Positions 15,997 through 54,426 are shown, counted from the stretch's first letter. The stretch is DNA of 64,000 bases from a virus (IMGVR_UViG_3300033463_006479:96001-160000); one strand, 5' to 3'. Notes: generated by a model from the letters alone, not told the origin. Numbers and translations: made by a program.

Positions 15997-16662
15997 ATGA
16001 ATATACTTAAAACGGATAGGTTTATAAGCGAGAAACTTTTAATAGCACCGATGTCAAAAACAAGGCTTGCTGATGTCGGTGCGAAAACACGTGAAGAAAA
16101 GAGATTGCTTGAAGCAACGTTTGATGTGATATTCATTGATGGATTGAATTATATGGAACTTGGTGTGCTTGCGCTTGGATTGCTGGACTATTCATATAAG
16201 ACAAATGTAACAAAATACGGTGACACGCATATTTGCATTTCCGTAAAAAATGATGACTGCGATGTTTATGGTGAAGAATGGAGTCCGTTTACACACCCAA
16301 GCGGATTGCCAGTTGCCTTAAATGATGAGCAGATGCAGATACTTTCCGAATACGGATTGAGATATGAATATGACAAAGGGACTGCTTGGATGGGTGTATC
16401 AGATGGCGTGAAATTGACAAGTCTGCTTGCATCTTATATTAGAACAAATTTGAAAAAGCATTTGCATTTGATAAATCCGAATGAAGTCAATGTTGTATGC
16501 AGCACAAACAACGGCGGTTCAATTTGTATATCAACAAACAAGCAGTCGGACAAAAACAGAAAAATAGAAGATGATTCGTTTTATGTTGATTTTATGTATA
16601 GTCTGATATGCATACAAGATTTTTTCAAGGAAATGTCCGATAAAATTATGGAAAACAAATAA
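15997..16662 (+). CDS. putative internal virion protein with bipartite N-terminal tag
   Basis: MNILKTDRFISE-KLLIAPMSKTRL; TATAAATA at 15968-15975. Confidence 0.7.
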   Translation: MNILKTDRFISEKLLIAPMSKTRLADVGAKTREEKRLLEATFDVIFIDGLNYMELGVLALGLLDYSYKTNVTKYGDTHICISVKNDDCDVYGEEWSPFTHPSGLPVALNDEQMQILSEYGLRYEYDKGTAWMGVSDGVKLTSLLASYIRTNLKKHLHLINPNEVNVVCSTNNGGSICISTNKQSDKNRKIEDDSFYVDFMYSLICIQDFFKEMSDKIMENK

Positions 16663-17060
16663 TGATTATGAACATATTGAAAGCCGACAATTACATTTCG
16701 GAGAAACTCGAAATTAAACCTATGACTGCAACAGCATTGAACAAAATAGGTGGAATTAACTATTCAGTTATTGCTTGGTGTGATGATGATGCTGGTTTTG
16801 ATGAAATAAATTTTGACGGAACGTGTCTTGTTTTAAATGAATTTGTATCAATTTTACAAAAAGTTGCCAATGAATTAAACGCACAAGTTATATTATCTGT
16901 ACCAGATGTTGGCAGTACGAATTGCACGTATGAAATTATTGGCAGTGATAAAAAAGAAATTACATACGGCGTGTTTACCGTTATGAACAACAAAGATGCG
17001 GAAAAAATATTGCACGATATATCAGACACCATACAAGGCAGCAGGATAACCGTGCAGTAA
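16662..17060 (+). CDS. putative internal virion protein with bipartite N-terminal tag
   Basis: MNILKADNYISE-KLEIKPMT; co-transcribed late gene. Confidence 0.7.
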   Translation: MIMNILKADNYISEKLEIKPMTATALNKIGGINYSVIAWCDDDAGFDEINFDGTCLVLNEFVSILQKVANELNAQVILSVPDVGSTNCTYEIIGSDKKEITYGVFTVMNNKDAEKILHDISDTIQGSRITVQ

Positions 17061-17069
17061 TTCACGAAA

Positions 17070-17711
17070 CTATCTGAATGTTGGCTGGTATTCTGGATGG
17101 TCTGCAAGCGGGCAGTCAATACACAATGCATCAATGCTTGTAACGCTTGACACATCCCATCCAGATATGTCTTGCAAGAAACTTTTAGCACCTTTGAATA
17201 TGCCGTCCATACTTTTTACACTTGACACATCCCATCCAGATATGTCTTGGTTGAAACTTTCTGCGTGGCAAAACATACCTTCCATATGCTCAACTCCAGA
17301 CACATCCCATTTGGATATGTCGCAGTTGAAATCAAGGGCATAGTCAAACATATAACACATATTTTTAACTTTTGAAACATTCCATTTTGAAATGTCTCCG
17401 TTAAAATGTGTTGTGGAAAACATACAATACATATTAGCAACATTGCTGACATCCCACTTGGAAATGTCGCCATTGAACTTTATACAATGAAAAAGATAGG
17501 ACATATCATTTATATCAGAAACGTCTATATCGTTCAAATCGCAATTTTCGCCTTCATTTTCAATTCTATATGATATAAGTTCTTCAAGTTCCTTTGTTGT
17601 TTTCGGAAAATACTTGTACAAAAGACTTTTTTTGTTGGAAAGTCTTGCTTTTGTAATCGGTTTTATTGAAAGTTTCTCGCTTATATAGTTTTGCGAATCA
17701 AGTATTCTCAT
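17070..17711 (-). CDS. DUF285/BspA-like repeat protein with bipartite N-terminal tag
   Basis: Repeated FNxDISKWDVSxVxxM; MRILDSQNYISE-KLSIKPITKARL; TATAAATA at 17727-17734. Confidence 0.85.
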   Translation of the reverse strand: MRILDSQNYISEKLSIKPITKARLSNKKSLLYKYFPKTTKELEELISYRIENEGENCDLNDIDVSDINDMSYLFHCIKFNGDISKWDVSNVANMYCMFSTTHFNGDISKWNVSKVKNMCYMFDYALDFNCDISKWDVSGVEHMEGMFCHAESFNQDISGWDVSSVKSMDGIFKGAKSFLQDISGWDVSSVTSIDALCIDCPLADHPEYQPTFR

Positions 17712-17734
17712 AAATGTTTATTTCTATATTTATA

Positions 17735-17765
17735 AAAAACGCACCGACATTTCTGCGGTGCGTTT
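17735..17765. terminator. intrinsic terminator
   Basis: aaaaaacgcaccg-loop-cggtgcgttt hairpin. Confidence 0.6.
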
Positions 17766-17792
17766 CATAGATAAACAATAAACTATAATATA

Positions 17793-18236
17793 TCAGTTGT
17801 TGAAACTGTCAATGATTTCAAACTTGTTCCACAATACTTTATTGAATTTGTTCCGTTCATTCTTCGTTATCACGGCATATCCGTTCACTTCTGGAAGTTG
17901 TTTGCCGTTGCAATCAAAGAACGATTTGCATTTGAAAACCGACAAATCTGGAAACTGATTTATGCGGCATAAGAATATATGTATATTCTTTTCCTTGTTG
18001 TGATTGTGTGTTCCGCAGTCAATTATATACGGCTCACCATTTGAGAACAATGTTTCGATTTTAACGCCAGTTTCTTCAGAGAACTCACGTTTGGCTGCAT
18101 CAATATCGGATTCGTCATCCTCAACAAGACCTTTTGGAAAATCATATCCACAGTTGTCTGGCCGTCCAGTTGCGTGGCAGGCCAATATGCTTCCGTTTCC
18201 GTCAATAAGTACAAGTGCCGCTGTTACTTTTTTCAT
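17793..18236 (-). CDS. NUDIX hydrolase
   Basis: Nudix box GLVEDDESDIDAAKREFSEETG. Confidence 0.9.
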   Translation of the reverse strand: MKKVTAALVLIDGNGSILACHATGRPDNCGYDFPKGLVEDDESDIDAAKREFSEETGVKIETLFSNGEPYIIDCGTHNHNKEKNIHIFLCRINQFPDLSVFKCKSFFDCNGKQLPEVNGYAVITKNERNKFNKVLWNKFEIIDSFNN

Positions 18237-18278
18237 AATGATTCAAATTATATATTTTAATTTTACGCATTAACATAT

Positions 18279-19405: not shown

Positions 19406-19496
19406 ATTCAAATAATATCGTATATACCAATATAATAAAAAACTTGAAAATATGCAACAGCACTTATAAATAATATCGGAACAAATATAGAATAAT

Positions 19497-20495
19497 ATGA
19501 GGATATTAAGGTCAAGCCAGTTTATAGCCGAGGGTGCTGGTGCTGGATATAAAGTTAAATTTGAAGGTTTGAAATTTGATTTAGCCACAGCTGAATTTAC
19601 TGGGGAACGCATAATGATTGACGATGAGGAATATTGGAAAATCAAAATAGGCATTAAGCACGATTTTGTTGATAGATGGGAAACTGAAAGTTACTATGAA
19701 TGTATGACATCAGACGGAGATGATAATTTCTTCTTTTATGACGGTGACAATGACCGTTTGATTGATGGCGGTGTATCGTTTTGGGTTGTGTCAAAAACGG
19801 AATTTCTTGAGTATGTGTCAAGAAATTATGAGTTTCAAGTGGATGAAAAACTTGATATAAAACCAATAACTGGGAGCTGGTTGAGGTCAACGGCACAAGC
19901 ATCAGCCGAAATGAGAAAGAAGATAATAAACTATACACAATATTTAAGAGAATTTTTTGATGACGAATGCGGCGATTCCAGAGACCTTGAATTTAATTAT
20001 GGATGTGGTTGGGGACACGTAAATCTTCCAAATCCGATTGTGCTTGGAGGCGATGTGAAAGACAAGGAATATCCATTTATTGAGTATTCTGATGGTTATG
20101 GAAATCTTTATATAAACTGTTATGAATTGCAAATAAACTGCGAGCAAATTGTTAATGACATAAATTATTTTTATGAATATGTTGATTATGCCAATGGAGA
20201 ATATGACACATATCACGATGATAATGATGGTATGGATTATTTAAAGGTTTCAGATGATAGTATTTTATCAGAAATAGATTCAGAATTTGATGAAAACGAA
20301 TATGAAAAATTGTGCAAGGATGCTATTGAAAGACTGAAAAACAAATATGGCATCCCATTTTATATGTTTGATATAAACGGAAGGCACGTGTATATTGAAG
20401 ACCAATTAGAAAACAGAAAAAACTTTAACAGTATAGAATTTGATGTCAAGAATGAGCAAGAAGATATTATAAAGAAACTAAACGGAAATTCATAA
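19497..20495 (+). CDS. acidic putative internal virion protein
   Basis: MRILRSSQFIAE N-terminus, internal VDE-KLDIKPIT; TATAAATA at 19465-19472. Confidence 0.7.
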   Translation: MRILRSSQFIAEGAGAGYKVKFEGLKFDLATAEFTGERIMIDDEEYWKIKIGIKHDFVDRWETESYYECMTSDGDDNFFFYDGDNDRLIDGGVSFWVVSKTEFLEYVSRNYEFQVDEKLDIKPITGSWLRSTAQASAEMRKKIINYTQYLREFFDDECGDSRDLEFNYGCGWGHVNLPNPIVLGGDVKDKEYPFIEYSDGYGNLYINCYELQINCEQIVNDINYFYEYVDYANGEYDTYHDDNDGMDYLKVSDDSILSEIDSEFDENEYEKLCKDAIERLKNKYGIPFYMFDINGRHVYIEDQLENRKNFNSIEFDVKNEQEDIIKKLNGNS

Positions 20496-25949: not shown

Positions 25950-27800
25950 AGGACTATAAGCTCCGAAGAACTAAACATAGTCAAAAGTGGTCACACCACT
26001 TTCACTACGTTCACCATCTGATTTGTTCATCAGACTTCTTCGGAACGACAACAGCACATCTTTAACTTTCTCACGTTTGAGTTTTCTCGGTTCGTATGCG
26101 CCGTTGCCAAGTCGTTTTAAGAGCGAATCACGCAACACGGTTACGGTCACTCTGTTCTTTATATTGACAGATGCGTTGTGGTCTGCATTGTCCTTATGCC
26201 CGCATTCAACGCATTCAAAGGTCTCTTGGCTCGGTCTGTTTTCATCTGCGATGCAACCACAAATCGGACACATCTTTGAGGTGTAACTCGCCTGCACTGT
26301 TGACAATGCGATACCATATTTCCTTGCAATGTGTTCAACCTCATCTTTTAGACTGCTCAATCCGAGGAACTTGACCTTTCTATTGTAGTTTATATCCTCG
26401 TTGTCTTTATCCTTGATGTAACACCTTCCAAAACCATTGTCAAGGTCTTCCATAACGATGTGGTCAACACCATCCAACATCAACGACTTGCACATCTTTG
26501 AAATGAGTTCTTGTTCGGATTTCTGCATCTTCATCTTGAGTGTGTCAAGTTTCTGCTGTTTGCGCTTGCCGATGGTGTAGTTCTTGTCTTTCTTCAGTTC
26601 GTCCACTTTCAATGACAGTTTGCAGAAGTCATTGACTAACTTACGGTTGTAGTCATAGGCAGTTTCGTTTGACAGACTGAAGAGATTGTGCTTGCAGTTC
26701 ACGTCAATTCCTACCACGTTGTCTCCTGCTTCTGGTATGTATCTCTGACCATCCTTGCACAAGTTGATATTGACTTGATGGTATTTTTCGTTGAATGTAA
26801 GCACATATTCGTAGTCGGGATTGGATTTGCGGTAGTCATTCATACTTCCGTGCCAATCCTTGTTGAACCTCACTGGGATGTCAAACGACTTTCTTTCGAT
26901 TCCAGACAGACTGACAAAGGAGTTGATTACCGAACCAAACTTCTTGTTGTAGTCAATGATTCTCGTCTTCCTGCACCTGCCTCCGAATGACAATGACTTG
27001 AACTCAATCGGATGCTCGGAATAACAATCGATGATTCTGTTTCGTTTCCGCAAGGCAAGTTCCATAAGTCTGTCAAAACCGAACTTGTTACAGCAACGTA
27101 TGATGTTGTTGTAGAAGTCTCGCTTCTTGTCATCGCAGGTCTCCAACTGCTTGATGATATATTCCAATGTGTTATCGTTTCCGTATCTTGCAAGATAAGT
27201 CAGACAGATTGACAATGGTGTTTTGCTATTCTCCGTTACGACATTCTTCAAGTCGCCTTTCTTGTTCTTCTTGGTGTCACGCTTGTAGAACTCAAATCCG
27301 ACAAATCTTATAACTTCAAAGTCAAGGTGTTTTCGGATTGCTTCAAACTTGTTCTGGTAGCAGTTGAACACTTGTGTATATAGTTGCATATCAAACGAAC
27401 TCGGAATGGCATCCTTGTATCTCGCCCTCATCCCCTTCAAGAAGTCGAATTTTGAATATTCAAGGTACTTTTCAAGATTGGAGTTCACATATTCGGAAAC
27501 AAGGTTCTTATGGTCACGCAGCATAACAGCAAACGAATGTAAATCGTCATACTTCTGACGTGTTAAGTCGTTTGACTTGAATGTTTTTGTGTATTTGCTG
27601 TCTATGACCATATTACAATAAAAAAGAGGCATTAAACTTGCGGCAGTAATGCGAGGAGTGCCATCAAGGATAAAACCTCTGTATATCTTTATTGTTATTT
27701 TGAAACGACTCCTCGCTTTCGTTTCATTATATAAATAGTCTTAAACTATAATATATTTATACGAGTTACTTTTGAACATTTTTGACTACTTTTGAATAGG
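25950..27800 (-). mobile_element. non-autonomous tnpB element (IS607/IS200-605-like)
   Basis: CCT at both junctions, three ~10-bp TCAAAA repeats at the left end, hairpin GACTATG..TTCG..TATAGTC at the right end, no tnpA. Confidence 0.55.
25971..27632 (-). CDS. tnpB: large TnpB/Cas12f-like RNA-guided nuclease
   Basis: RuvC-I VGIDVN, RuvC-II IVMEDL, CPICG/CVECG Zn finger, RuvC-III ADHNASVNI. Confidence 0.85.
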   Translation of the reverse strand: MPLFYCNMVIDSKYTKTFKSNDLTRQKYDDLHSFAVMLRDHKNLVSEYVNSNLEKYLEYSKFDFLKGMRARYKDAIPSSFDMQLYTQVFNCYQNKFEAIRKHLDFEVIRFVGFEFYKRDTKKNKKGDLKNVVTENSKTPLSICLTYLARYGNDNTLEYIIKQLETCDDKKRDFYNNIIRCCNKFGFDRLMELALRKRNRIIDCYSEHPIEFKSLSFGGRCRKTRIIDYNKKFGSVINSFVSLSGIERKSFDIPVRFNKDWHGSMNDYRKSNPDYEYVLTFNEKYHQVNINLCKDGQRYIPEAGDNVVGIDVNCKHNLFSLSNETAYDYNRKLVNDFCKLSLKVDELKKDKNYTIGKRKQQKLDTLKMKMQKSEQELISKMCKSLMLDGVDHIVMEDLDNGFGRCYIKDKDNEDINYNRKVKFLGLSSLKDEVEHIARKYGIALSTVQASYTSKMCPICGCIADENRPSQETFECVECGHKDNADHNASVNIKNRVTVTVLRDSLLKRLGNGAYEPRKLKREKVKDVLLSFRRSLMNKSDGERSESGVTTFDYV

Positions 27801-27898
27801 TTTATCAACTTCTGTTGCTATCCCAAAGCGTCCGACTTCACGGAAGGAATCCTCACGTGCTGAACTCCTATAATATCATTAAAAATATGAAAAACTTG

Positions 27899-27981
27899 GG
27901 CGTAGGGTGGGATTCGAACCCACATATAGAATAAATCCACAGAGCCACAATCTGTTGCATAGCCATTCTGCCACCTACGCC
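27899..27981 (-). tRNA. tRNA-His(GUG) with long variable region
   Basis: Loop TTGTGGC, G-1:C73 pair. Confidence 0.8.
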
Positions 27982-27986
27982 ATATA

Positions 27987-28341
27987 TTAAAATTTTATTT
28001 TTCTACCATTACCATTTTTATCTTTAACAGAAACTGTATTTTTCATAGATTTCCAACCATAATCACCTCCAGTTTTCATATTATAACACATTATATCTTT
28101 GACTAAAAAATCGGTTACAATTTCTGATTCATACGCAAATGCTTCTTCGGCAGAATCAAAAAAAACAAACAATTTCTTTTTTAAAGTTTTCAATACCATA
28201 TTTTTTATAAGCATATCGCAAACGCCGCCCACTGCCCATATATCCATCATCTAAATTGTTTGTGTTATGAACACCATAATAAAAATGATTATTTATGCAA
28301 TTTGTTATTTTATAAAAATAATGATATTTGTATGTTTTCAT
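27987..28341 (-). pseudogene. GIY-YIG (Seg-like) homing endonuclease, frameshifted
   Basis: [20 protein letters not shown] in one frame, AFAYESEIV..YNMKTGG in another; shift at a homopolymer near 28160; TATAAATA at 28363. Confidence 0.75.
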
Positions 28342-28421
28342 TATCGAACTTTATTGTTATATTATTTATAATGTCAAAAGTTCGACAATTCCCATTATAA
28401 TGTCGTTATAACAAAAAAATC

Positions 28422-28509
28422 CGTGCGGGTGAGACTCGAACTCACAATGTGCGTTTGCGGGACTTTTCTTTTTCAAGAAAGTTGCGGATACCGTTCCGCA
28501 TACCCGCAC
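28422..28509 (-). ncRNA. tRNA-like RNA with non-canonical anticodon arm
   Basis: Intact acceptor, D and T arms; arm ACTTTCTTGAAAAAGAAAAGT has no 7-nt loop. Confidence 0.6.
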
Positions 28510-28794: not shown

Positions 28795-28859
28795 GGGAGC
28801 AGTGTGCGTTGCTCCCAACAGCAGGCTATCGCACACGACCTGCTGTTTGTCAAAAAGTC

Positions 28860-40423: not shown

Positions 40424-41272
40424 TTAAAGTGAAAGTATTGTTTTTCTGACAGCATCACGGACTTTTCGTTTTTCGTTTGTATTCAATTCATTGAATTTGA
40501 ACACAACTTGTTCTTCACTATATCCATTGGTGTCTGGCTCTGAATATCCGATAAGATACATATTGCCATAGTAATCACTTTCTTCGTGAGGATATATTTG
40601 GAACAATATGGAATCGTTCATTCCATCAAATTTACGAATATGCAAATCAGATTGCGATAGCCATAAGTTATACATACCAGCCCCAGCGTCTTCAAGTTTT
40701 GACAGATTTTTTCTTGCAATATCGCACAAATCTTCAACATACAATTTGTTTTGGAATGAGGTATCATTTGACAAATCAGACAATCTGTCTTTTGTTACTG
40801 GCTTTATGTTCAGTTTTTCATCAACTTTTGATATTGTGTTGATAACTGCAATGGCTGTTGGAAAATCGTCAATTATTTTGTCAAACTGGAACGGCAGTGA
40901 GTCTATCAGATTTTCTTCCAAGCCGATTATGTCACACGTGTTTATATATGGGCTTTTCACGCATTTGACAAAGATATGCTTTGTTCTGTTTTTTTCCAAT
41001 GAGTGAACATTGACAGAATAGCCGCTCTCCATCGCTTCTTTTATAGTGTCGGTAAGATGTTCATACGAAAACACCTCAACAAAATCGTTCTCACCAAATG
41101 CGCCGATTGAACGCATAAACTGCGTTAATTGTGCGTATGACATATTTTCAAGTTTGGCACGAAGGACATTAATGTCTTTGGCTTCATTTGATATGCCTTG
41201 CATTCTGGTTTTCGTCATTGGCTTGACGTTCAGTTTTTCGGAAATATATTTGTTTGTGTTGAGTATTTTCAT
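40424..41272 (-). CDS. putative internal virion polyprotein with two tags
   Basis: MKILNTNKYISE-KLNVKPMTKTRM and internal VDE-KLNIKPVTKDRL. Confidence 0.75.
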   Translation of the reverse strand: MKILNTNKYISEKLNVKPMTKTRMQGISNEAKDINVLRAKLENMSYAQLTQFMRSIGAFGENDFVEVFSYEHLTDTIKEAMESGYSVNVHSLEKNRTKHIFVKCVKSPYINTCDIIGLEENLIDSLPFQFDKIIDDFPTAIAVINTISKVDEKLNIKPVTKDRLSDLSNDTSFQNKLYVEDLCDIARKNLSKLEDAGAGMYNLWLSQSDLHIRKFDGMNDSILFQIYPHEESDYYGNMYLIGYSEPDTNGYSEEQVVFKFNELNTNEKRKVRDAVRKTILSL

Positions 41273-41280: not shown

Positions 41281-42507
41281 TTAAATTCTTTTAGGTTGTT
41301 TTGATTTTTTTCTTGCGATTGGAGTTTTGCTGAATGCGTTTGCTGTATTGCAAATAACAGAAATATCCCAGCCAGACAAATCACAATCAAATTGTGAACA
41401 TCCGAAAAACATATCCTCTATTGTTTCAACACTGCTGACATCCCACAATGATATGTCACCATTGAAATCCGAATAGGCGAACATAGCATTCATATCCTTT
41501 ACATTTCCGACATTCCAATTTGATATGTCGCCATTGAAAGATGAGCCATAGAACATTTTTGTCATTTTTTCAACATTTCCAACATCCCATTTTGATATGT
41601 CATTATTAAATCTTGAAAGGTTGAACATCTGCTCCATATTTTCAACTCTGGAGACATTCCATTTGGAAATATCGCCATTGAACGTTGTCCTGCTGAACAT
41701 ATACGACATATACTTGACTTTTGACACATTCCACGCCGTAAGATTCTGGTTGAAATCAAGATTGTTATGAAACATTGATGTCATATTCTCAACATTGCCG
41801 ACATTCCATTTGGAAATGTCTCCATTGAAATATCCGCTTTTTGAATTGCCGTTCTCGCAACAGAACATACTTGACATATTTTCCACCTTGCCGACATTCC
41901 ATTTTGATATGTCCCCGTGAAATTTAGTGAATGCGAACATAAAACTCATATTCTCCACATTGCTTACATTCCATTTTGATATGTCCCCGTCAAATTCACA
42001 TTCACAGAACATAGCACTCATATCCACAGCACTGGAAACATTCCATTTTGAAATATCGCCATTGAATATTGAATCGGCAAACGCCCTATTGAAATTGGTT
42101 ACATTTGATACATCCCATTCTGATATGTTTCCGTTGAATTTTGAACTGTCAAAAATATACTGCATATTCGTAACATTGGAAACATTCCATTTGGATATGT
42201 CGCCATTGAATTTCGTATTGTAGAAAAGCCAGCCCATATCCGTAACATTGGAAACATTCCATTTGGATATGTCAATGTTTTCAATATCCATTCCCCAAAA
42301 CAATGCGTTCATATCAGTTATTTTTGAAACATCAATGTCATTCAAATCATAATTTGAACAGTCTATGTGTTCCTTTATGGCCGCAATAAGTTCATCTTTT
42401 GTTTTTGGATGATATTTGTATGGACGCAGTTCAGTAAGCCTTGCTTTTGAAACTGGCCTTATGTTTAATTTTTCTGAAATGTATTCCTCGGAATCAAGTA
42501 TGTGCAT
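41281..42507 (-). CDS. DUF285/BspA-like repeat protein with bipartite tag
   Basis: About 13 FNGDISKWNVSNVxxM repeats; MHILDSEEYISE-KLNIRPVSKARL. Confidence 0.9.
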   Translation of the reverse strand: MHILDSEEYISEKLNIRPVSKARLTELRPYKYHPKTKDELIAAIKEHIDCSNYDLNDIDVSKITDMNALFWGMDIENIDISKWNVSNVTDMGWLFYNTKFNGDISKWNVSNVTNMQYIFDSSKFNGNISEWDVSNVTNFNRAFADSIFNGDISKWNVSSAVDMSAMFCECEFDGDISKWNVSNVENMSFMFAFTKFHGDISKWNVGKVENMSSMFCCENGNSKSGYFNGDISKWNVGNVENMTSMFHNNLDFNQNLTAWNVSKVKYMSYMFSRTTFNGDISKWNVSRVENMEQMFNLSRFNNDISKWDVGNVEKMTKMFYGSSFNGDISNWNVGNVKDMNAMFAYSDFNGDISLWDVSSVETIEDMFFGCSQFDCDLSGWDISVICNTANAFSKTPIARKKSKQPKRI

Positions 42508-42515: not shown

Positions 42516-43061
42516 TTATTGTTCCGTGATGGCATTCTTGCTTTCCATATCGGCAAGAAAATCGTTGAGGTTTTTAAGATGTTCTTCCTCGTCAGCAAGA
42601 ATATGAACAACCATATCATAAGTGGTTGTATCCTTGTCACGCAAGAAATCAAGCGTTTTCTGATAGCCGTCAATGGCACATTGCTCGTGAGTTATGTTCA
42701 TATGCACGAGTGCTTTCGTGTCATACGGCTTTTGTGGCATAGTGTAATGGCATTCGCTTAAAGTAACGAGATACGTTATGTCTTTCAAGCGTTCAATGTC
42801 GCCGCCAAGTTCAGAAATGCGTTTCAATATCTTTTCGGCGTGGTCGTTCAGCTCGTCATCGGCCATTTCCTTGAATGTCTTTTCAATGTTCGGTCTTTCA
42901 CTTCCAACGAGAAAATCAGCAACGGTATTGTAATGATACCACTGCAAAACTTCTTCTGCATAGCGTTTTTCAAGGATTGCTATAACTTCCTGCACATCTA
43001 TTCTGTCACTAACAGATTCATTTACTCTTTTGAAATTGAAATAATTGCTTAATTGCTTCAT
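42516..43061 (-). CDS. ferritin/Dps-like (bacterioferritin-like) protein
   Basis: E..Y, DELNHAE..RI.ELGG, HE..AI..Y, DEEEH diiron motifs; TATAAATA at 43087. Confidence 0.85.
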   Translation of the reverse strand: MKQLSNYFNFKRVNESVSDRIDVQEVIAILEKRYAEEVLQWYHYNTVADFLVGSERPNIEKTFKEMADDELNDHAEKILKRISELGGDIERLKDITYLVTLSECHYTMPQKPYDTKALVHMNITHEQCAIDGYQKTLDFLRDKDTTTYDMVVHILADEEEHLKNLNDFLADMESKNAITEQ

Positions 43062-43133
43062 TGGTTTCTATATATTATTCCGAATATATTTATAAACAAA
43101 AAAGCCAGCAAACCGCTGGCCTTAATCATATTG

Positions 43134-45439: not shown

Positions 45440-46294
45440 TTAGTTATTTGAAAATCTCCTTTTTAATTCATCAGCAACTTTTGTCATATCACCGCCATAT
45501 TTTTCCATCATTTTTTCAATGTCGTTGATTGTTGCGATAGCGTTTCTGTTATTGGCGACATACAATTTTCTGATAAGTTCCCTGCCGTCACGATGCCCGT
45601 TTTTCCATTCAGAACTTGTCGGTATCTTTTCCTTTTTCTTATTTTGCCGTTTTGCTTGCGGTTGCGGATTCTTTTTGCACTGTTCTACCACATTCTTGTA
45701 CCTTTTCATAATTGTTTCCATAGGCAATCCTGCAACATCCTTGCTGTAACAACCACCGATTTGTTTCCAAAAATCTGGCGGGCATATATTATCGCCTACC
45801 ATTATACCATTAACCTCCAAATCGCCAGCAATGTTCAAATCTTTCCAATTTGCTTTTATTTCTTGGTTTTCATTATAAGATAACATTCTTGGTATATGGG
45901 CAAGCATAGAGTGCATAGCCTCGTGGTACAATATTCTAAAAACGGCAAGTGCGTTCATTCCAAGGCCGTGCGGAGGATTGTCATATAAGAAACCGACATT
46001 TATATAATACACCATTTTTGAATCCACACACATAGTATCTGTTATCGTGTCATCAAGCAAATAAATTATTGAACAATTTTTAATATATTTGTATTCATAG
46101 GGCTGCGTATTCTTGAAATATGCGATTGCACTATTTACAAGGTCAACAAACTCTATGCCATCAACAAGATTGCCATCAGACATACGGATTTTGCCAAGTG
46201 CGGCAAGCTCATCGGCATTGCCGCCATTTGTATTTCCATAACTCTCAAGAATGATGGAATAATGTGATGTATTATATACGTATTCCTTATCCAT
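45440..46294 (-). CDS. HEXXH metallopeptidase-like (DUF2201-type)
   Basis: TMCVD..YIN..F, YHEAMH..LAH..R, NIAGDLEVN. Confidence 0.8.
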   Translation of the reverse strand: MDKEYVYNTSHYSIILESYGNTNGGNADELAALGKIRMSDGNLVDGIEFVDLVNSAIAYFKNTQPYEYKYIKNCSIIYLLDDTITDTMCVDSKMVYYINVGFLYDNPPHGLGMNALAVFRILYHEAMHSMLAHIPRMLSYNENQEIKANWKDLNIAGDLEVNGIMVGDNICPPDFWKQIGGCYSKDVAGLPMETIMKRYKNVVEQCKKNPQPQAKRQNKKKEKIPTSSEWKNGHRDGRELIRKLYVANNRNAIATINDIEKMMEKYGGDMTKVADELKRRFSNN

Positions 46295-46297: not shown

Positions 46298-49189
46298 TTA
46301 GTCTATCATAGAATTTCCTATACTGTCAAACAAAGTGTCCAAATCAACATTCGGATGGCTTTGTTCATAATCACCGATTATGCGTGCATATTCATTGAAG
46401 TTCGGGTCAGTATTGTCAAGAAGGTTGCAGTATTTACAAATTCTTGCAATAAGGTCTGGAACTGGTGATGAAGATTGTGTATCAAAATTGTCGTTCAAGA
46501 AATGGATTATGGTTTCCAAATCTTTTGGCGGTATTTTATCAGAAGCATCAAACATTGATTGTATTTCACGTTTCAAGTGGTTTGTAACCGCAACCGCATT
46601 CACATTGGTATCAACTTTAAGATTTGGATTGTTTACAATACGGTCGTATGTGTATCTGAATGAATCAGAGCCGCCATTTTCAATGTATTCCTCAACATAT
46701 TCTTGAGCAATGTCATCTGGAAGGAAACCAGCCACATAAGTCAAGAATGTATCATAACCGAGGTCGGCATAGGATTTAACGCCTTCAATCTTGCACACCT
46801 TATTCAATTCCGAGATAGCCCTCGACCATTGTCTTGGTGAAATGCTTCTTGTTTCCATATCGTCTTCCGTTGCATCGGGGTCAATGTTATGCCATCTTGA
46901 ATTTGGCGTGTCTTCACCTCTCGCACCAATGAACTCAATCGTAAAATCATCAAATCCGCCTTTGTCTTTAGCCCATTTAGACCAATCCTTGAATGTAGGA
47001 ACAAAGTTATATGATTTCAACCTCTGTTTAAGTGCTGGCGGAGCATCACTCCAACTTCTTTTGACACGAACATCGTCTGTCGGACGGTTTGAACAAGCCA
47101 TACAATACCACTTGCTTCCAAGTCTGTATCCGCCAGTTGTTTGGCGTGTCATCATAATTTGTGCGATACCGAACAATGTGTCTGGGTCGGCACGCAAAAA
47201 CTCGTCAAACATAAGGATACCTCCGCCGCCGTGCGTTTCGGTATCTTCCATATATCCTTCTTTGTCATATATAACGCTGACGTGTCCGTTAGCAACAGCG
47301 TTTCTTGCTTTGTCAAGTTCTTTATCTCCAGTAGGCAGCCACATAGGAAGCCAACTTTTAGGAACGTCTGATGAATGCGCTGTGATAAATTTCTCACAGT
47401 CTTTGTCTGTCATATTATGTGCCGCCATATATTCCTTGACAAACGGGATATTCTTTACTCGTTCAATATCGTCTTGTGTTATCTTGACTGGCATAGGCAT
47501 AAACAAGTCGCCAGCCTGCAATATTGAACAATCAACAACTATAATTGAGAATTTGTCGTTATTGCTTCCGCCACTTTCCGCAACGACATCGTTGGCCGCA
47601 TCAACAATATCTTTCGGTATGGTAGTCTTACCAATACCAGGCGCACCCCATATCACCATAGGTTCAAATATGATTGGCTTGTCACCTTTCATACCTTTCA
47701 ATATGGTGTTCAGCATACTTTTGAGCGTTTCGCTTTTTATGTCTTTAGCACCGATGTTCTTATATGTCTGTCCTCCGATTTTCTCAACACTTTTCAGACC
47801 GACACGGCGTTCATTGACTTCAAGGGATTCGCTTATTGCGCTGCTTGACAATTTGGAAGTGTATTCCATAAACTTGAAGTAATTGTCAAACTCTTGGCTG
47901 TTCTCTGGTATTTCGTCATAATACCCAGACTTCTGCGGATAATTGACTGGTTTCCCACATTCAGCATAAACACCAGCAACACGATATTTCTTCAAGAAAT
48001 CAACAATGTTCTGCGGGAGATTAGCACCGAACATATCAAGTGTTTTCCCCACAACAAACGTGAATCCGTCTTTGAGTTTTACACCGACCGTTTCAAAAGC
48101 GTCCTTTATTTTGCTGAAAGACCTTTGGGCAAAATCTCTGATAACGCCTTCATTCATACCATATTGTTCGTTGATGAACTCCATAGTATCCAACACATAT
48201 TTCTTTTCATTAGTTGTATCCATAATGGCCTGCATTCTGTATTTTTTAATATCACTTGTTTTTCGCTTAATGTCATCTGCACTGCCAATCCAAGCACCCA
48301 TACGTTTTTTGACGGATTCCGTATCATCGGCGGAAGTCCTTCCGATAACTGGGAGATAACCGAGTTCTTGGTTTATAGTCAAAGCCCATCTTCTCAAAAC
48401 ATCCTTCTTGTCAAAGTCAGAACCGATAAACATATTCTTTATATTCTGTGCCTTTTTAAGTTCCCAGTCCTTTATGGAATCGTTGTTGAATGTGGATTTG
48501 TAGAACATACCTTCAAAGCAAGTTCCGTTTGAAACATTCCAGTTGCTCAAATCAACATTCGGCAAATCCTTGAATGCGAACACAGCCGTAAAATCACGGA
48601 CATCTGTCACATTGAAGAACGAATATGGAAGTTCAACATCCTGCGTTGTAACAGCATCACCCCAAGGGCTGTCTTTCGGGTTTGTGATAAGATGATAAAC
48701 CAAATCCGATGCGAAGTTTATATCGTGCAAGTTCTGGTCAACATAAGCATCGCCCTTTACATTGGTAAGGGTTATCTCTTGATGGCTCATCCAGTCGTTG
48801 AGTTCGTCCTTCAGTTTTTTCTCCTTTGCCTTTATTTCCTCTTGCTTGTTTCTTTTTCTGACTTGTTCGGCTTCCAAATCGCTCATTGACCTTATTTTGC
48901 TATAATCGGTATCATCGTCTGGTATGCTATCTTCGTCAGTTTCTTCTTTTGATTTAACTCTGTCAAATAAGCCCTCATTGACAACACGGCCTTCAGTAAG
49001 AAAAGATGCGGTCTTTGTCTTTTCAAGAAGTTCATTGACGGATTCATTGATTGCCGCCTCGTTCTCCTTATAAAACTGTTCATAGAGTTTTCGTTTTTCG
49101 GAAATTGAAAGGCTCTTATCCACGTTTTTCCAGAAGTTCTCATAAGCGAACTTCGACATTATTCCTATATTGTAATTGAATGCTCCCAT
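46298..49189 (-). CDS. MoxR-like AAA+ ATPase with N-terminal DUF285 repeats
   Basis: WGAPGIGKT, ILMFDEFLRA, ACSNR, ALKQR, SPRQW; DLSNWNVSN repeats. Confidence 0.85.
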   Translation of the reverse strand: MGAFNYNIGIMSKFAYENFWKNVDKSLSISEKRKLYEQFYKENEAAINESVNELLEKTKTASFLTEGRVVNEGLFDRVKSKEETDEDSIPDDDTDYSKIRSMSDLEAEQVRKRNKQEEIKAKEKKLKDELNDWMSHQEITLTNVKGDAYVDQNLHDINFASDLVYHLITNPKDSPWGDAVTTQDVELPYSFFNVTDVRDFTAVFAFKDLPNVDLSNWNVSNGTCFEGMFYKSTFNNDSIKDWELKKAQNIKNMFIGSDFDKKDVLRRWALTINQELGYLPVIGRTSADDTESVKKRMGAWIGSADDIKRKTSDIKKYRMQAIMDTTNEKKYVLDTMEFINEQYGMNEGVIRDFAQRSFSKIKDAFETVGVKLKDGFTFVVGKTLDMFGANLPQNIVDFLKKYRVAGVYAECGKPVNYPQKSGYYDEIPENSQEFDNYFKFMEYTSKLSSSAISESLEVNERRVGLKSVEKIGGQTYKNIGAKDIKSETLKSMLNTILKGMKGDKPIIFEPMVIWGAPGIGKTTIPKDIVDAANDVVAESGGSNNDKFSIIVVDCSILQAGDLFMPMPVKITQDDIERVKNIPFVKEYMAAHNMTDKDCEKFITAHSSDVPKSWLPMWLPTGDKELDKARNAVANGHVSVIYDKEGYMEDTETHGGGGILMFDEFLRADPDTLFGIAQIMMTRQTTGGYRLGSKWYCMACSNRPTDDVRVKRSWSDAPPALKQRLKSYNFVPTFKDWSKWAKDKGGFDDFTIEFIGARGEDTPNSRWHNIDPDATEDDMETRSISPRQWSRAISELNKVCKIEGVKSYADLGYDTFLTYVAGFLPDDIAQEYVEEYIENGGSDSFRYTYDRIVNNPNLKVDTNVNAVAVTNHLKREIQSMFDASDKIPPKDLETIIHFLNDNFDTQSSSPVPDLIARICKYCNLLDNTDPNFNEYARIIGDYEQSHPNVDLDTLFDSIGNSMID

Positions 49190-51234: not shown

Positions 51235-52008
51235 TTATTTCCGTTTTCCAAATTCAGATATTTGTATGACATCTGTATGACTTAAAGTGGTTTCGCCCTT
51301 TTTAATCATATCTGTACAAATATACCATTTTTTATCCCCTTGATGCCAGTTAAGCATTGCATATTTTATTTCATTGCCGTTTATGTCGTGTGACGGATAT
51401 TTGAAAGGATATTTGCTGTCGCTTGCTATCTCCGAATGAAAGCAGCAGTATTCGTATTTTTTAGGAACATAATCACTTCGTATATATAGCGAAACAGATT
51501 TGCCGAATAATGAAAGGTCATCCAATCGTTCTTCTACATTTTCATAATTCCAAATGTGAGGGTCATCATAACGCCTTGGCTTATTAATCAATAAAGCTGC
51601 TGGCATAAGAGCATTCATATTATTCCTTTTTCCTATGACATATCGGTTTTCCATAAGCAACTGAATAGCATATGGATATATGTTTTTTTCAATATCAACA
51701 AACCATTCGGAATCTGTATGGTATTCCTTTTGCTGGTCAATGTAACATCTGTTGGTTATTGAAGACTTGACAACGCAAAAATAATCAATTTCAAAATTGT
51801 ATGGATACCAAACACTTTGTGTGATTAAAGCAGCAGCAACGGCCTTTATCAAATCGTGCTGCGTTTTTGGATATTGCATATTGCATACGTCATCATACGA
51901 TATGCGTCTTTTGTCCAATATGTTACGAACATTGCCAAGATTTGTTTTTGTGATTGGCCTTATGTCAAGTTTTTCGTTTATGAAATTTGATGCGTTGAGT
52001 ATCTCCAT
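51235..52008 (-). CDS. putative internal virion protein with bipartite tag
   Basis: MEILNASNFINE-KLDIRPITKTNL. Confidence 0.75.
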   Translation of the reverse strand: MEILNASNFINEKLDIRPITKTNLGNVRNILDKRRISYDDVCNMQYPKTQHDLIKAVAAALITQSVWYPYNFEIDYFCVVKSSITNRCYIDQQKEYHTDSEWFVDIEKNIYPYAIQLLMENRYVIGKRNNMNALMPAALLINKPRRYDDPHIWNYENVEERLDDLSLFGKSVSLYIRSDYVPKKYEYCCFHSEIASDSKYPFKYPSHDINGNEIKYAMLNWHQGDKKWYICTDMIKKGETTLSHTDVIQISEFGKRK

Positions 52009-52016: not shown

Positions 52017-52568
52017 TTATATTGCAAGTTTAACAACAACTTCCTGCGCACGGAATGTGCAGTTAAATGTTTTCATATCTATCATATTGCTTGAGAAGTT
52101 GAAATCCAATCCGTCTATGGCCGTGAACAAAACATTCTTGTATTCTATCGTGAACACCTCATATCCGTTGCCGTCAAAAATTCTGACAAAAGGAACGCCG
52201 TTTATAAACTTGTCTTCGGATGACGAATAATAGTAATAGAACAAATCTAACATAAGAAAATAGTTCACATAGCCGTCATACAACTGCTGTGTTACGGTAA
52301 ATTCTTTTGGCATAAGTCTTTCTGGTGAATATGCAGAACGATAGATTCTTGAATACGGGGTTTTTCTGTCGTATTGTTCAACAACATCAAACTGCACATT
52401 TTGCATATTGAATCCCTGCACCCCGTAATTGACATAATCAATGCAGCGGTCAAAGACGTTGCCTGGGATGCGTTGGAGATAGGGCATATACTTGTCGTTT
52501 ATCTCGTCTGGTATGAGTGTCTTCGCAAAGAAGAACTCAAACATATTGTTTCTTGCTGGAAGTAACAT
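52017..52568 (-). CDS. tail tube-fold structural protein
   Basis: Late promoter; beta-rich C-terminus YKNVLFTAIDGLDFNFSS..KTFNCTF typical of the gp19/gp54 fold. Confidence 0.55.
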   Translation of the reverse strand: MLLPARNNMFEFFFAKTLIPDEINDKYMPYLQRIPGNVFDRCIDYVNYGVQGFNMQNVQFDVVEQYDRKTPYSRIYRSAYSPERLMPKEFTVTQQLYDGYVNYFLMLDLFYYYYSSSEDKFINGVPFVRIFDGNGYEVFTIEYKNVLFTAIDGLDFNFSSNMIDMKTFNCTFRAQEVVVKLAI

Positions 52569-52583
52569 TTGAGTCTTTTTCTT

Positions 52584-52595
52584 TATTTATAAATA
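52584..52595. promoter_or_regulatory. palindromic bidirectional late promoter
   Basis: TATTTATAAATA gives TATAAATA on both strands between divergent genes. Confidence 0.75.
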
Positions 52596-52613
52596 TACGG
52601 AAAAGCAATCCGA

Positions 52614-53672
52614 TTGATGAAGATATTAAGTTCAAAAGATTTCGCAAGTTTACACGAAAAACTCGACATACGTCCAATCACAAAGGATATGCTTTCCGAT
52701 ATGTCAGATGAACGCATATTGAAAGAGAAAATGCACGCAAGGAAAGACACGAAAGAATATGCTGAATTTATCTGGTACACATATGCAAAGATACAGAAAA
52801 GAATAATTGAAGGGAACTATAAAGTTGAGGTATCTGGCAAATTGACATTAAAAGGCGAACTTGGATATACTCACAACCAAGAAAATATATGGATTGTCGA
52901 ATTGCCGTTAATATCAAGCAATGTGTATAAAATAAAAGATTTGACGGATTACGAATGTTCTCCGTATTGGCCGAAACCGCCATATCATATTTGGATAACA
53001 TCAGCAGAAAACGCATATTCCGATGAGGTAAAAAAGGATGTGTGGAAAAAAATCGGAATGGAACTGAAACCAATATATGAACTCGTTGCAGACAAAAATG
53101 GGTTATACAACAAAAAAATAACAGATGCTATAACATTAAAATTCAATAAAGCAAACTGGGGGATAAATGCGCATCAAGAATTGATAGATGGACTTGAAAA
53201 TGCGATAGGTGACGTGAATGTGAAATTGCAATATACAGTCAGAGGTTTGGGTGATAACACAATAGAGCCAATTGTATATATATGTTTGAATAAAAACGAA
53301 AAGGGTATAGATAGGCATAGCAGCAATGTCTTTTGGTTCGATTTAAGTTATGGTAAAATAGAATGCAGAAATATGCCGCATTTGTATCTGTCGCCGTTTG
53401 ACAAAAGCGGAAATAATCCATTTAATCCGAGTTTGAAATATTTGGCTATGCGAAGTTCTGATAATTTGCTGAAAGAATGTGGTATGAAACCTTGGAGAAA
53501 GGTATCTTACAAAACACCGCAAGATGTCATAAACAAAATATCAAGATATGTGAACGACAGCATACGTCTTATGGACATATATTGTGGAACGAATGTCAAA
53601 TTGTTAGGCGGAAAAGATATGATTGGCGTTTTGGACATATCAATCGCTGATGCGAATATGGAAAATATATAA
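52614..53672 (+). CDS. putative internal virion protein with bipartite tag
   Basis: MKILSSKDFASLHE-KLDIRPITKDML. Confidence 0.75.
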   Translation: MMKILSSKDFASLHEKLDIRPITKDMLSDMSDERILKEKMHARKDTKEYAEFIWYTYAKIQKRIIEGNYKVEVSGKLTLKGELGYTHNQENIWIVELPLISSNVYKIKDLTDYECSPYWPKPPYHIWITSAENAYSDEVKKDVWKKIGMELKPIYELVADKNGLYNKKITDAITLKFNKANWGINAHQELIDGLENAIGDVNVKLQYTVRGLGDNTIEPIVYICLNKNEKGIDRHSSNVFWFDLSYGKIECRNMPHLYLSPFDKSGNNPFNPSLKYLAMRSSDNLLKECGMKPWRKVSYKTPQDVINKISRYVNDSIRLMDIYCGTNVKLLGGKDMIGVLDISIADANMENI

Positions 53673-53677
53673 TAAAA

Positions 53678-53911
53678 ATGAGTACGATACTTGCACTTGA
53701 AGAATTTATAGTGGAAAACGACAATGAACTTTTTTTGGAAGTTCTCGAACACTTCAAAAAACAATATCCGAGAAGAAGGATTGAAGTCAAAAGATACGGC
53801 TATGGAAACATAGTGAGCATTGACGGTGAGGACAAATTCAATACGAGCGGTTACAACCTGCTCTATAATATTAAACGTCTGTGCGATTGCCTTGAAGATG
53901 AATTGATTTAA
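53678..53911 (+). CDS. small late protein with CTS-like N-terminus
   Basis: MSTILALEEFIVE. Confidence 0.65.
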   Translation: MSTILALEEFIVENDNELFLEVLEHFKKQYPRRRIEVKRYGYGNIVSIDGEDKFNTSGYNLLYNIKRLCDCLEDELI

Positions 53912-53913
53912 TT

Positions 53914-54426
53914 ATGATGAAGATATTGAAAGCAGCCGATTACATTGGTGAGAAACTCACAATAAAGCCAGTTACAAAAACGAGATTGTCGGATATAAAG
54001 AAAGCCAACAGCGAGCGGCACACATATAGGATAGCCGAATGTGAGGTTATTATGGCTGAAGATAATTATGTCAATGGCGAGGATGAGGGTATATCTTTTC
54101 CATTTGTGATAACTCATATTAAAACAGCAAACAGTTTGGAAAACCTTTTGCGCAACTTCAATGATGATGTTTGCCGTGGTCACGCATTTGATATTGAAGA
54201 TTTTGTTTATGACACAGAAACTGACGGTAGAGTTGATATGTCTGTTACAAGTATGTTGATAACAACAAATTTCAATTTCAAAGAACCTACACAAAATGAT
54301 TGGGAAAGATTCAAAGAAGGCAAAATCAATATGACATCGCTAATATTCCAACTTCTCATAGAGAAAGACGAATTTGTTGATGACATATCAGAAGATTGTG
54401 AAAAAATAGGTATTATAAGTAGGTAG
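53914..54426 (+). CDS. putative internal virion protein with bipartite tag
   Basis: MKILKAADYIGE-KLTIKPVTKTRL. Confidence 0.75.
   Translation: MMKILKAADYIGEKLTIKPVTKTRLSDIKKANSERHTYRIAECEVIMAEDNYVNGEDEGISFPFVITHIKTANSLENLLRNFNDDVCRGHAFDIEDFVYDTETDGRVDMSVTSMLITTNFNFKEPTQNDWERFKEGKINMTSLIFQLLIEKDEFVDDISEDCEKIGIISR

Follow-up and report, generated by a model that had tools for sequence, protein, structure and literature searches.

Leader sequence and distribution

Approximately one quarter of the genes of an uncultured giant T4-type phage carry at their N-termini the same leader of 26 residues (78 nt), made of two halves. The first half, together with the [ILV]-x-Glu that closes it, is on balance probably a capsid-targeting sequence (CTS) joined to a head-protease site, and the multi-module proteins would be cut into pieces at such sites. 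The phage is represented by a 192,463-bp contig (G000) with ~276 called genes and a CheckV completeness estimate of 70%; coordinates given below are those of the window, that is, the whole 64,000-nt stretch of this contig that was analysed. A sister phage, G001, is complete at 413 kb and displays 81% identity to the contig in TerL, 88% in the major capsid protein (MCP) and 92% in the portal. The contig encodes a T4-type capsid protein (gp23-like, PF07068 at 96.7 bits) and a T4-type portal (gp20-like, PF07230 at 218 bits).

Part 1 of the leader (residues 1-12) reads M-x-I-L-x-x-x-x-[YF]-[IV]-x-E, and part 2 reads KLxI[KQ]P[VI][TS]Kx[RL]L, its typical form KLxIKPVTKxRL being basic. Residues 1-12 finish in [IV]-x-E in all eight leaders of the window, while in a sub-family located outside the window the junction [IL]-x-E is replaced by F/Y/L-N-E (F/Y/L at P3). 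In 100 shuffles of the window sequence the second-half core pattern, observed 11 times, is expected 0.02 times and the first-half pattern, observed 8 times, 0.07 times. The first-pass annotation had listed eight N-terminal tags, at 15997, 16668, 17711 (minus strand), 41272 (minus), 42507 (minus), 52008 (minus), 52617 and 53917, and all of them are real. However, this count is far too low, as a profile of the tag matches 76 of the ~276 contig genes at residue 1 plus about 15 internal copies, and even within the window two genes carrying related leaders, 53678..53911 and 54518..54877, had been overlooked. With the same profile, 61 reading frames of the complete G001 genome carry the tag, in 72 copies, and a database of 1.84 billion proteins yields 192 representative clusters, most of them with the tag at residue 1.

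The sequences support a reading of the two halves as separable modules. Across four genomes part 2 is better conserved than part 1, and it is also found at N-termini beginning M-L-x-I-K-P and, in G001, behind a different leader, MTHIKRIDE... Part 1 stands alone on some genes, with starts of the type ...QFIAE-G or ...EFIVE-N. Moreover, homologous passengers exist with the full tag, with one half and with no tag.

Tagged genes in the window

The large terminase gene (14025..15956, plus strand; late promoter at 13998-14005) is followed immediately by tagged genes, likewise in G001. The first of these, 15997..16662 (plus, 221 aa, tag at nt 15997-16074), encodes an uncharacterised singleton passenger behind a TATAAATA late promoter at 15968-15975 and shares its operon with 16668..17060 (plus, 130 aa), whose passenger is also uncharacterised. 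On the opposite strand, 17070..17711 (minus, 213 aa, tag at nt 17634-17711, TATAAATA at 17727-17734) encodes a DUF285 protein, an LRR-like solenoid (Pfam E 6.6e-61). Its AlphaFold model has a mean pLDDT of 90.9 and the passenger reaches at least 95, compared to 55-65 for residues 1-30, and residues 15-20 are called coil.

Further along, 40424..41272 (minus, 282 aa, N-terminal tag at 41195-41272) is a tagged two-module protein, and 41281..42507 (minus, 408 aa) is a second tagged DUF285 protein (E 7.7e-131), in an operon headed by gene 42516..43061 with TATAAATA at 43087-43094. The tagged proteins had been called otherwise dissimilar, which does not hold for 17070..17711 and 41281..42507, both DUF285, but does for the other passengers of the window, which are singletons.

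An overlapping divergent pair of TATAAATA late promoters at 52584..52595 serves tagged genes on both sides. Leftward it faces 52017..52568 and 51235..52008 (minus, 257 aa), a tagged gene with an uncharacterised passenger whose G001 homologue retains the second half only. Rightward it faces 52617..53672 (plus, 351 aa), which has a 2-residue insertion in the first half (FASLHE-KL) and a homologue in G001 that is also tagged, then the 77-aa ORF 53678..53911 (plus), which carries the first half only and starts MSTILALEEFIVE-N, and finally 53917..54426 (plus, 169 aa), with an acidic uncharacterised passenger and a G001 homologue that bears the other leader type, MTHIKRVDE. The 119-aa gene 54518..54877 (plus, TATAAATA at 54485-54492) begins with this second type in the 9-residue form MTHIKRINE, ending in I-x-E, and leaders of the MTHIKRINE type are common to four G001 genes.

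Internal copies of the second half

Both of the internal second halves reported earlier in the window are present, after QVDE in 19497..20495 and after KVDE in 40424..41272. The first of these genes (plus strand, TATAAATA at 19465-19472) encodes a conserved 332-aa protein whose N-terminus has the first half only (MRILRSSQFIAE-GAGAG) and whose internal site and second half, QVDE-KLDIKPITGSWL, lie at about aa 114-129 (~nt 19836-19883); both motifs are invariant in 8 orthologues with identity down to 52%. In 40424..41272 the corresponding segment is KVDE-KLNIKPVTKDRL (~nt 40781-40825). Internal copies retain [ILVM]-x-E and part 2 while part 1 is absent, and they are spaced ~150-170 residues apart, after a ...W... 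module end. One multi-module protein was modelled, 19497..20495 (mean pLDDT 66), with low-confidence segments at residues 1-18 and 114-143, the latter at pLDDT below 50 and between two folded parts. The proposal that internal copies reflect polyprotein processing thus gains one copy that fits, located in a predicted inter-domain linker, while the cleavage itself is what we infer.

A second half with no preceding Glu had also been noted in the 163-aa gene 2421..2912 (minus strand), and it is indeed there (GGKLEIKPITKTRL, ~nt 2616-2651). The motif is kept in two G001 homologues, and a search of the window for a nearby TATAAATA late promoter found none for this gene. Since a Glu-less family with no late promoter has part 2, this half appears to work independently of the cut site, and the earlier view of it as what cleavage exposes has to be relaxed: it is not simply an exposed product.

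Late promoters

The window contains 21 TATAAATA motifs compared to 3.8 expected, counting the promoter motif only. Nearly all tagged genes had been placed in TATAAATA operons, and all eight of the window do have the motif 16-26 nt upstream of a start codon, directly or through their operon. The association extends to both whole genomes when same-strand gene runs with and without tagged genes are scored for TATAAATA. Indeed, in G000 the motif is found for 13 of 17 tagged runs versus 9 of 73 others (p 4.5e-7), and in G001 for 16/21 versus 34/164 (p 7.5e-7). TATAAATA likewise accompanies the genes for the MCP, the portal, the terminase and the protease, and in both genomes tagged genes lie directly 3' of the portal, MCP and terminase genes.

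Passenger proteins

Clustering separates the passengers into at least 20 unrelated groups. Among 124 tagged proteins the families found were DUF285 (28), LRR_4 (15), LRRNT (10) and Fib_succ_major (9), and no enzyme family or known anti-defence domain was recognised in this set. Most tagged proteins are acidic, with a median pI of 5.66. Judged by family, DUF285, LRR and Fib_succ_major domains are typical of cell-surface binders and unlike known injected proteins. The passengers had been described as an injected effector arsenal; with binding repeats as cargo, and neither enzymes nor known anti-defence domains recognised in it, this is conjecture.

Head protease and junction hexapeptide

The main head protease gene was not found on the contig, where the best S77-like ORF scores 19.5 bits against a Pfam cut-off of 27 bits. 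This weak ORF, 8441..8962 (minus strand), was rejected as the main head protease, as its own G001 homologue sits beside that phage's true protease. The latter lies in the 200-340 kb block of G001, which is almost unrepresented in the contig, scores 49.5 bits as an S77 protease and matches the T4 gp21 structure 5JBL (E 2.3e-6). In 38 homologues of the protease I9 is nearly invariant and E11 invariant, a pair that, in sequence, resembles the LIE-9 site of T4 gp21 (PMC9026906).

The tail of the G001 protease is scaffold-like, with 14-residue repeats H[NS]DYLAE[KQ]L and 10-14 regularly spaced Y-L-A-E sites, and its hexapeptide Y-L-A-E-[KQ]-L is the one found at the tag junction. The pattern [YFW][ILVM]xE[KQ][LIM], defined after both classes (tags and tail repeats) had been seen, occurs 54 times in the G001 proteome compared to 4.5 expected; 33 of the matches lie in tags and 10 in the tail of the protease, which leaves 11 in other places. 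A scoring matrix built on the scaffold repeats fails to single out the tags, which make up 6 of its 100 top 14-mers; hence, the similarity of tag and tail is limited to the hexapeptide. Near the N-terminus of the MCP, candidate sites of the [IL]-x-E kind are conserved as INE, IKE and LNE (residues 6-8, 19-21 and 49-51), a weak observation as the motif is short.

Discussion

The first-pass annotation read the leader as a system for loading proteins into the virion and delivering them. This reading is favoured by the T4-type head module, the gp21-type protease of G001, the shared hexapeptide, the late promoters and the separable halves; that the proteins are packaged, cleaved and ejected, and that part 2 has a role of its own, is what we infer. 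The T4 CTS is an N-terminal propeptide of 10-19 residues (MKTYQEFIAE in IPIII) after which gp21 cuts, at L/I-x-E (PMC9026906; PMC8442874), and it may be how T4-like phages in general load a variety of proteins (PMC9026906, PMC3012670). The resemblance to the CTS of T4 IPI, IPII, IPIII and Alt, which gp21 removes, is one of form and of setting: a short N-terminal leader on unrelated proteins, with an aromatic residue and then [IL]-x-Glu, is expressed late from TATAAATA alongside a T4-type capsid protein and portal, to which the sister phage adds an S77 protease. Because the first half of the leader looks like this head-loading tag, we propose, by analogy, that dozens of binding proteins are probably packed beside the phage DNA. 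The late-made leader would take each unrelated passenger into the scaffolding core of the prohead via part 1, and the gp21-type (S77) head protease would then cut after the Glu of [ILV]-x-E and remove part 1. The same cut, at internal [ILVM]-x-E-KL sites, would split the multi-module proteins. Every mature piece would retain part 2 as an N-terminal arm, short, flexible and basic, which our preferred guess makes a handle that may hold the mostly acidic cargo to DNA or to a common partner. The functions suggested earlier for this half, in ejection order, DNA binding or docking, are guesses as well.

Several features set the phage apart from T4, however. A handful of T4 genes carry a CTS, compared to 76 on a partial contig and 61 frames in G001, sites recur here inside multi-module proteins, and an invariant 12-residue basic segment lies past the cut site, T4 having nothing similar. 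Part 2, the better-conserved half, is explained by nothing in T4 biology, and this counts against the main reading, as do its Glu-less copies in genes lacking a late promoter, the F/Y/L-N-E sub-family, the protease missing from the contig, the confinement of the tag-tail similarity to the hexapeptide and the acidic, surface-binder character of the cargo. Furthermore, T4 cargo comprises small basic proteins, an ADP-ribosyltransferase and a nuclease inhibitor, whereas here it consists of binding repeats. The T4 scaffold protein gp22 and the core proteins gp67 and gp68 are cut at many L/I-x-E sites, and the G001 protease tail with its repeated Y-L-A-E would similarly be chopped up and expelled like scaffold; in contrast to T4, protease and scaffold-like repeats form a single protein in G001, with the site extended to the hexapeptide that the cargo leader also has. 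The giant phages phiKZ, 201phi2-1 and SPN3US pack tens of megadaltons of diverse proteins, which are processed by a relative of gp21 (gp175/gp245-type), the cut falling behind Glu in a motif three residues long (PMC9026906, PMC7411985). Their ejection and inner-body proteins differ in having no shared portable leader, an S/A-x-E motif and small paralogue families, in a separate phage lineage. [quoted passage not shown] 2017; PMC5512222). The multi-module tagged proteins share this architecture, but polyvalent proteins contain enzymes and their own embedded metallopeptidase, whereas the modules here are binders or uncharacterised, the sites are of head-protease type and most tagged genes are single-module.

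Part 2 could be a separate address once the protease exposes it, giving a load-then-deliver code on about one quarter of the genes, an extension that we hold to be tentative and rather doubtful. The basic arm would then tie acidic cargo to DNA for co-ejection or, alternatively, dock all binders onto one target in the newly infected cell, and the scheme would include the second-half-only set, which would never be packaged. A different proposal places the action in the producing cell, with part 2 as a linear motif docking to one partner (a host hub, DNA or a phage factor) and the tagged proteins acting where they are made and not as packaged cargo. The stronger conservation of part 2 in the four genomes and its occurrence alone at N-termini, in the conserved Glu-less family with no nearby late promoter and joined to MTHIKRIDE... 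in G001 all agree with this. Yet it leaves unexplained the strict N-terminal position, the preceding [ILV]-x-E, the match to the protease tail and the position of tagged genes next to those for portal, MCP and terminase, and we consider it unlikely in this form, although it and the main explanation could both hold if docking follows delivery. The tag could also be an uncleaved anchor that fixes alternative binders to a common outer site of the virion (capsid surface, collar or fibres), in which case the result would be a mixed adhesin coat and I-x-E would be incidental. The cargo, nearly all of it made of binding repeats of the kind that bacteria carry on their surfaces and with no enzyme families, argues for such an anchor, and late co-expression with structural genes fits it equally well. 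Phage receptor-binding proteins usually combine a conserved N-terminus with a variable C-terminus, the layout seen here, and part 2, the most conserved part, resembles in sequence a short strand leading into the start of a helix. Against this, the junction hexapeptide is shared with an internal protease and scaffold protein, [ILVM]-x-E is retained in internal copies, the part-1-only genes end in FIAE or FIVE as the T4 CTS does, and 26 residues predicted at low AlphaFold confidence are very short for a structural anchor, which makes an outer position quite unlikely.

The nucleotide sequence of the tag bears on a further alternative, in which it is a recombination handle, or the inherited N-terminus of an expanding gene family, with no targeting role, the conserved 78-nt stretch permitting passenger cassettes to be swapped and amplified. 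Codon use in the tag does depart from genome usage, as Ile3 is ATA in 61 of 63 cases (44% in the genome) and Glu12 is GAG in 73% (26% in the genome). The Pro18 codon is genome-specific: 70% of the copies in G000 use CCA, and 79% of those in G001 use CCC (background of CCC in G001, 23%). Copies from one genome agree in codon slightly more often (same-codon identity 0.59 and 0.56) than copies from different genomes (0.52). Tandem arrays hold most tagged genes, and the contig and G001 differ in their gene sets, also as expected for a handle. However, at Leu4, Leu14, Tyr9, Ile16 and Lys21 the amino acid is constant whereas codon choice is free, and selection therefore acts on the peptide. Internal copies and half-tags are likewise conserved as protein, and nucleotide conservation begins exactly at the ATG and ends at ~+78, with no conserved flank. 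Recombination coexists with targeting at T-even internal-protein loci and could do so here; a handle with no targeting role is very unlikely.

To our knowledge, it is not yet understood how the T4 CTS locates the scaffolding core. The phage clade described here constitutes a natural library of more than 100 leader variants, together with a protease whose tail repeats the junction peptide, and the two make the CTS recognition rule testable. The retained second half could serve as a portable tag for protein delivery. If displayed on the virion surface, the tagged proteins would represent a new kind of multi-adhesin display. If packaged, they would be by far the largest head-loaded protein set proposed for any phage, made of binding repeats and not of enzymes, which bears on the extra coding capacity of huge phages.

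Occurrence of the tag and relatives of the phage

Translation of the named reading frames revealed the two-part N-terminal tag at all eight starts where the first-pass annotation had placed it, namely 15997, 16668, 17711 (-), 41272 (-), 42507 (-), 52008 (-), 52617 and 53917, as well as the proposed internal copies in 19497..20495 and 40424..41272 and the copy lacking the Glu in 2421..2912. The consensus of the eight window ORFs is M-x-I-L-x-x-x-x-[YF]-[IV]-x-E followed by K-L-x-[IV]-[KRA]-P-[IMV]-[TS]-x-x-x-[LM], with a two-residue insertion in the copy at 52617. Shuffled sequence gives 0.02 copies of the second-half core and 0.07 of the first-half pattern, whereas the window has 11 and 8. On the whole 192,463-bp IMG/VR virus contig, in which the window covers 96001-160000 and for which CheckV gives a completeness of 70%, the tag profile matches 76 of ~ 276 called genes and a further ~ 15 internal copies, most of the tagged genes lying in tandem arrays outside the window. 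The complete 413-kb genome of a sister phage, G001, contains 61 tagged reading frames with 72 tag copies. The earlier observation holds, and on a larger scale.

Among 1.84 billion representative proteins, a full HMMER scan found the tag in only 192 clusters with an E of 0.001 or below (a word-index protein search with residues 1-40 had given a single match). In most of these clusters the tag starts at residue 1, or it recurs every ~ 150-170 residues. Given the few clusters and this fixed start or regular spacing, the tag is a rare element confined to a single clade and fixed in position. No tag family is present in Pfam or PHROGs, the profile gave nothing significant against PDB sequences, and six of the window passengers have no Pfam or PHROGs family.

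A 15-kb query gave no megablast match among phage GenBank records. Relatives are present in IMG/VR, including G001, which shares with the phage studied here (G000) 81% identity in TerL, 88% in the capsid protein and 92% in the portal. The contig encodes a gp23-type capsid protein (PF07068, 96.7 bits), a T4-type portal (PF07230, 218 bits) and a large terminase. The portal gene is directly followed by tagged genes in three genomes, and the capsid protein and terminase genes each in two.

Late promoters of the tagged genes

The T4 late-promoter motif TATAAATA occurs 21 times in the window versus 3.8 expected, and all eight tagged window genes stand behind a copy 16-26 nt upstream of a start codon, either directly or via their operon. 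When each same-strand gene run was counted as one unit, the motif was found in 13 of 17 runs with tagged genes versus 9 of 73 runs without in G000 (p 4.5e-7), and in 16 of 21 versus 34 of 164 in G001 (p 7.5e-7). The proposed enrichment of late promoters at tagged genes holds genome-wide in both phages. The motif also precedes the capsid and portal genes, the terminase gene of G000 and the protease gene of G001. At 52584-52595 two divergent motifs lie on opposite strands with a 4-base overlap (TATTTATAAATA), together making a compact two-way late promoter for the tagged operons on either side. On the minus strand at 40066-40145, three motifs spaced exactly 36 nt stand upstream of a non-coding/tRNA region, with a fourth at 40380-40387.

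Codon use and evolution of the tag

Conservation runs from the ATG to about +78, and no upstream sequence is conserved. An RNA or translation-start element was rejected, since the conserved sequence starts at the ATG itself and internal copies are kept as peptide. Codons vary freely at Leu4, Tyr9, Leu14, Ile16 and Lys21, and this free codon change at fixed residues indicates that it is the peptide that is under selection. Codon use at other positions is uneven: Ile3 is ATA in 61 of 63 copies (44% genome-wide), Glu12 is GAG in 73% (26% genome-wide) and Arg23 is AGG in 49% (15% genome-wide). For the invariant Pro18, 70% of G000 copies use CCA and 79% of G001 copies use CCC, a codon with a background of 23% in G001 overall, and this genome-specific choice of proline codon spans unrelated passengers and internal copies. 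Such codon patterns suggest that the tags have to some extent been homogenised, or have recently spread, inside each genome, and would be compatible with the tag doubling as a recombination point.

An ORF-poor stretch at 27898-37946 (-) carries 24 tRNA genes, including tRNA-Ile(UAU), tRNA-Arg(CCU), tRNA-Arg(UCU) and tRNA-Leu(CAG), which read ATA, AGG, AGA and CTG. Array tRNAs thus read ATA and AGG, codons over-used by the tag; that this might tie the array to translation timing is only a thought. Other ORFs in the window include a 553-aa frame at 25971-27632 (-) matching the transposase families phrog_506 and phrog_12300, and a 524-aa fused DHFR-TS frame at 60640-62214 (-), with dihydrofolate reductase at residues 4-182 and thymidylate synthase at 172-522.

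Separable halves and a second leader

The idea that the two halves are separate modules was upheld by internal copies without the first half, by half-tags and by a second leader. Internal copies keep [ILVM]-x-E and the second half, lack the first half, and come after a module end (...W...) plus ~ 10 residues. Some genes begin at or just before M-L-x-I-K-P, that is, with the second half alone, and in 2421..2912 and its two G001 homologues the second half is internal and lacks the Glu in front; the family of 2421..2912 sits in a cluster without TATAAATA. Of the two halves, the second is the better conserved across four genomes. The first half is likewise found alone, as ...QFIAE-GAGAG in 19497..20495 and its G001 orthologue, as ...QFIAE-SAK in G001 and as ...EFIVE-N in 53678..53911.

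The second leader, MTHIKR[IV][ND]E, has 9 residues, ends in [IV]-x-Glu and heads five otherwise different proteins (window 54518-54877; G001 190773, 262979, 302551 and 351927), in one of which the main tag's second half follows. By analogy with T4, which has different classes for IPI and for IPII/IPIII, this leader may represent another class of capsid-targeting sequence.

Passengers and predicted structure

Grouped by family, the passengers comprise 26 DUF285 genes, 24 LRR genes, three small families and ~ 17 singletons; those in the window are two DUF285 proteins, the remainder being singletons. Among the 124 tagged proteins of both genomes, Pfam assigned DUF285 to 28, LRR_4 to 15, LRRNT to 10, Fib_succ_major to 9 and DUF4893 to 6, and no enzyme families. 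Tagged proteins are acidic, with a median pI of 5.66 versus 6.46 for the rest, and their 19,506 codons make up ~ 30% of the contig. Homologous passengers may be tagged, half-tagged or untagged between G000 and G001. In an untagged 963-aa protein at 46298-49189 (-), a DUF285 stretch (residues 190-260) is accompanied by an ATPase-like region (phrog_1297); an HNH-endonuclease-like ORF at 45440-46294 (-) adjoins this gene.

The DUF285 protein 17070..17711 was modelled with 19 paralogues. The mean pLDDT is 90.9, with 95 or more in the passenger and only 55-65 in residues 1-30, and the low values point to a tag that is a flexible extension outside the fold. Helices are predicted at 6-14 and 21-31, with coil between them at 15-20. 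For 19497..20495, modelled from 8 sequences (mean pLDDT 66), the low-confidence segments are residues 1-18 and 114-143, the latter being the internal tag, and both motifs stay unchanged in orthologues with as little as 52% identity. No solved fold convincingly matched either model: Foldseek gave only weak rows for the DUF285 model, all LRR solenoids (best E 0.18), and no PDB match at E 0.001 or better for 19497..20495. For 52617..53672 there was no usable ESM Atlas match.

The head protease and its repeat tail

No convincing S77 protease was found on the contig. The sole match, the small ORF 8441-8962 (-), which contains a TLEHP motif, scores 19.5 bits, under the cut-off; it was rejected as the head protease on account of this score, its poor alignment to the G001 protease (E 37) and its separate homologue in G001. 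It could represent a degenerate, or else an additional, protease-like protein. The end of a 444-aa ORF of unknown function at 8850-10184 (-) overlaps it, and homologues of the two lie side by side near the G001 terminase. G001 itself has a true S77 protease (49.5 bits), which matches the T4 gp21 structure 5JBL at E 2.3e-6. The 200-340 kb block of G001 that holds this gene is almost without counterpart in the G000 contig, hence the G000 protease gene presumably lies in the missing part.

Residues 1-200 make up the G001 protease in an open frame of 651 aa (647 aa when counted from the first Met) at 290916-292871 (L023:1-1926:-). The remainder holds 10-14 repeats of H[NS]DYLAE[KQ]L with a 14-residue period, and the frame ends in a conserved C-terminal domain. 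The Y-[LIV]-A-E repeats are kept in diverse protease homologues (5,351 matches, of which 8 were read and 38 aligned). In the 38 aligned homologues E11 is invariant and I9 nearly so, resembling the LIE-9 site that T4 gp21 has close to its N-terminus (PMC9026906). Thousands of metagenomic proteins share the protease and repeat tail, many of them on contigs of 380-420 kb, so that protease and scaffold seem to be joined in one gene in a large clade of huge phages.

The hexapeptide [YFW][ILVM]xE[KQ][LIM], a pattern defined only after both the tags and the protease tail had been seen, occurs 54 times in the G001 proteome versus 4.5 expected from composition; 33 of these copies fall in tags, 10 in the tail of the protease and 11 in other places. 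These counts indicate that the tag junction is the same peptide as that repeated in the scaffold-like tail, as would be expected if one enzyme cut both. A tag N-terminus ranks first among 14-mers outside the protease when scored by a matrix derived from 110 repeat units. Only 6 of the top 100 14-mers are tags; the whole first half as a copy of the repeat unit was therefore rejected, and the likeness is claimed for the hexapeptide alone.

Comparison with T4 and overall reading

T4 internal proteins are targeted to the core by N-terminal propeptides of 10-19 residues; the first 10 suffice in IPIII, residues 4 and 7 matter in targeting and 8 and 10 in processing, and gp21 cleaves after L/I-x-E (PMC9026906). 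The IPIII capsid-targeting sequence is MKTYQEFIAE (PMC8442874), and the conserved positions of the first half of the tag are I3, L4, [YF]9, [IV]10 and E12. Internal proteins of T-even phages are a diverse set in which the targeting sequence is the only shared part, so the principle of a loading leader is already known (PMC3012670). Unlike the T4 internal proteins, the system described here has its large scale, a second half, a polyprotein layout and another kind of cargo.

The explanation with the best support is loading by the first half and cleavage at the Glu, which six independent lines of evidence from the sequence make rather probable. Three other readings were weighed against loading and cleavage. 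The second half, which occurs internally and at the start of some genes, could be an intracellular docking motif, and this we regard as unlikely. The tag as an external virion anchor for adhesins, a reading that bears on passengers such as the DUF285 and LRR proteins, is also improbable. A recombination handle or family heritage is very doubtful, the genome-specific codons standing on one side and the selected peptide on the other.

The second half is firmly a separate, strongly selected, flexible basic peptide that also works outside the cleavage context, and it could possibly serve as an ejection or docking address.
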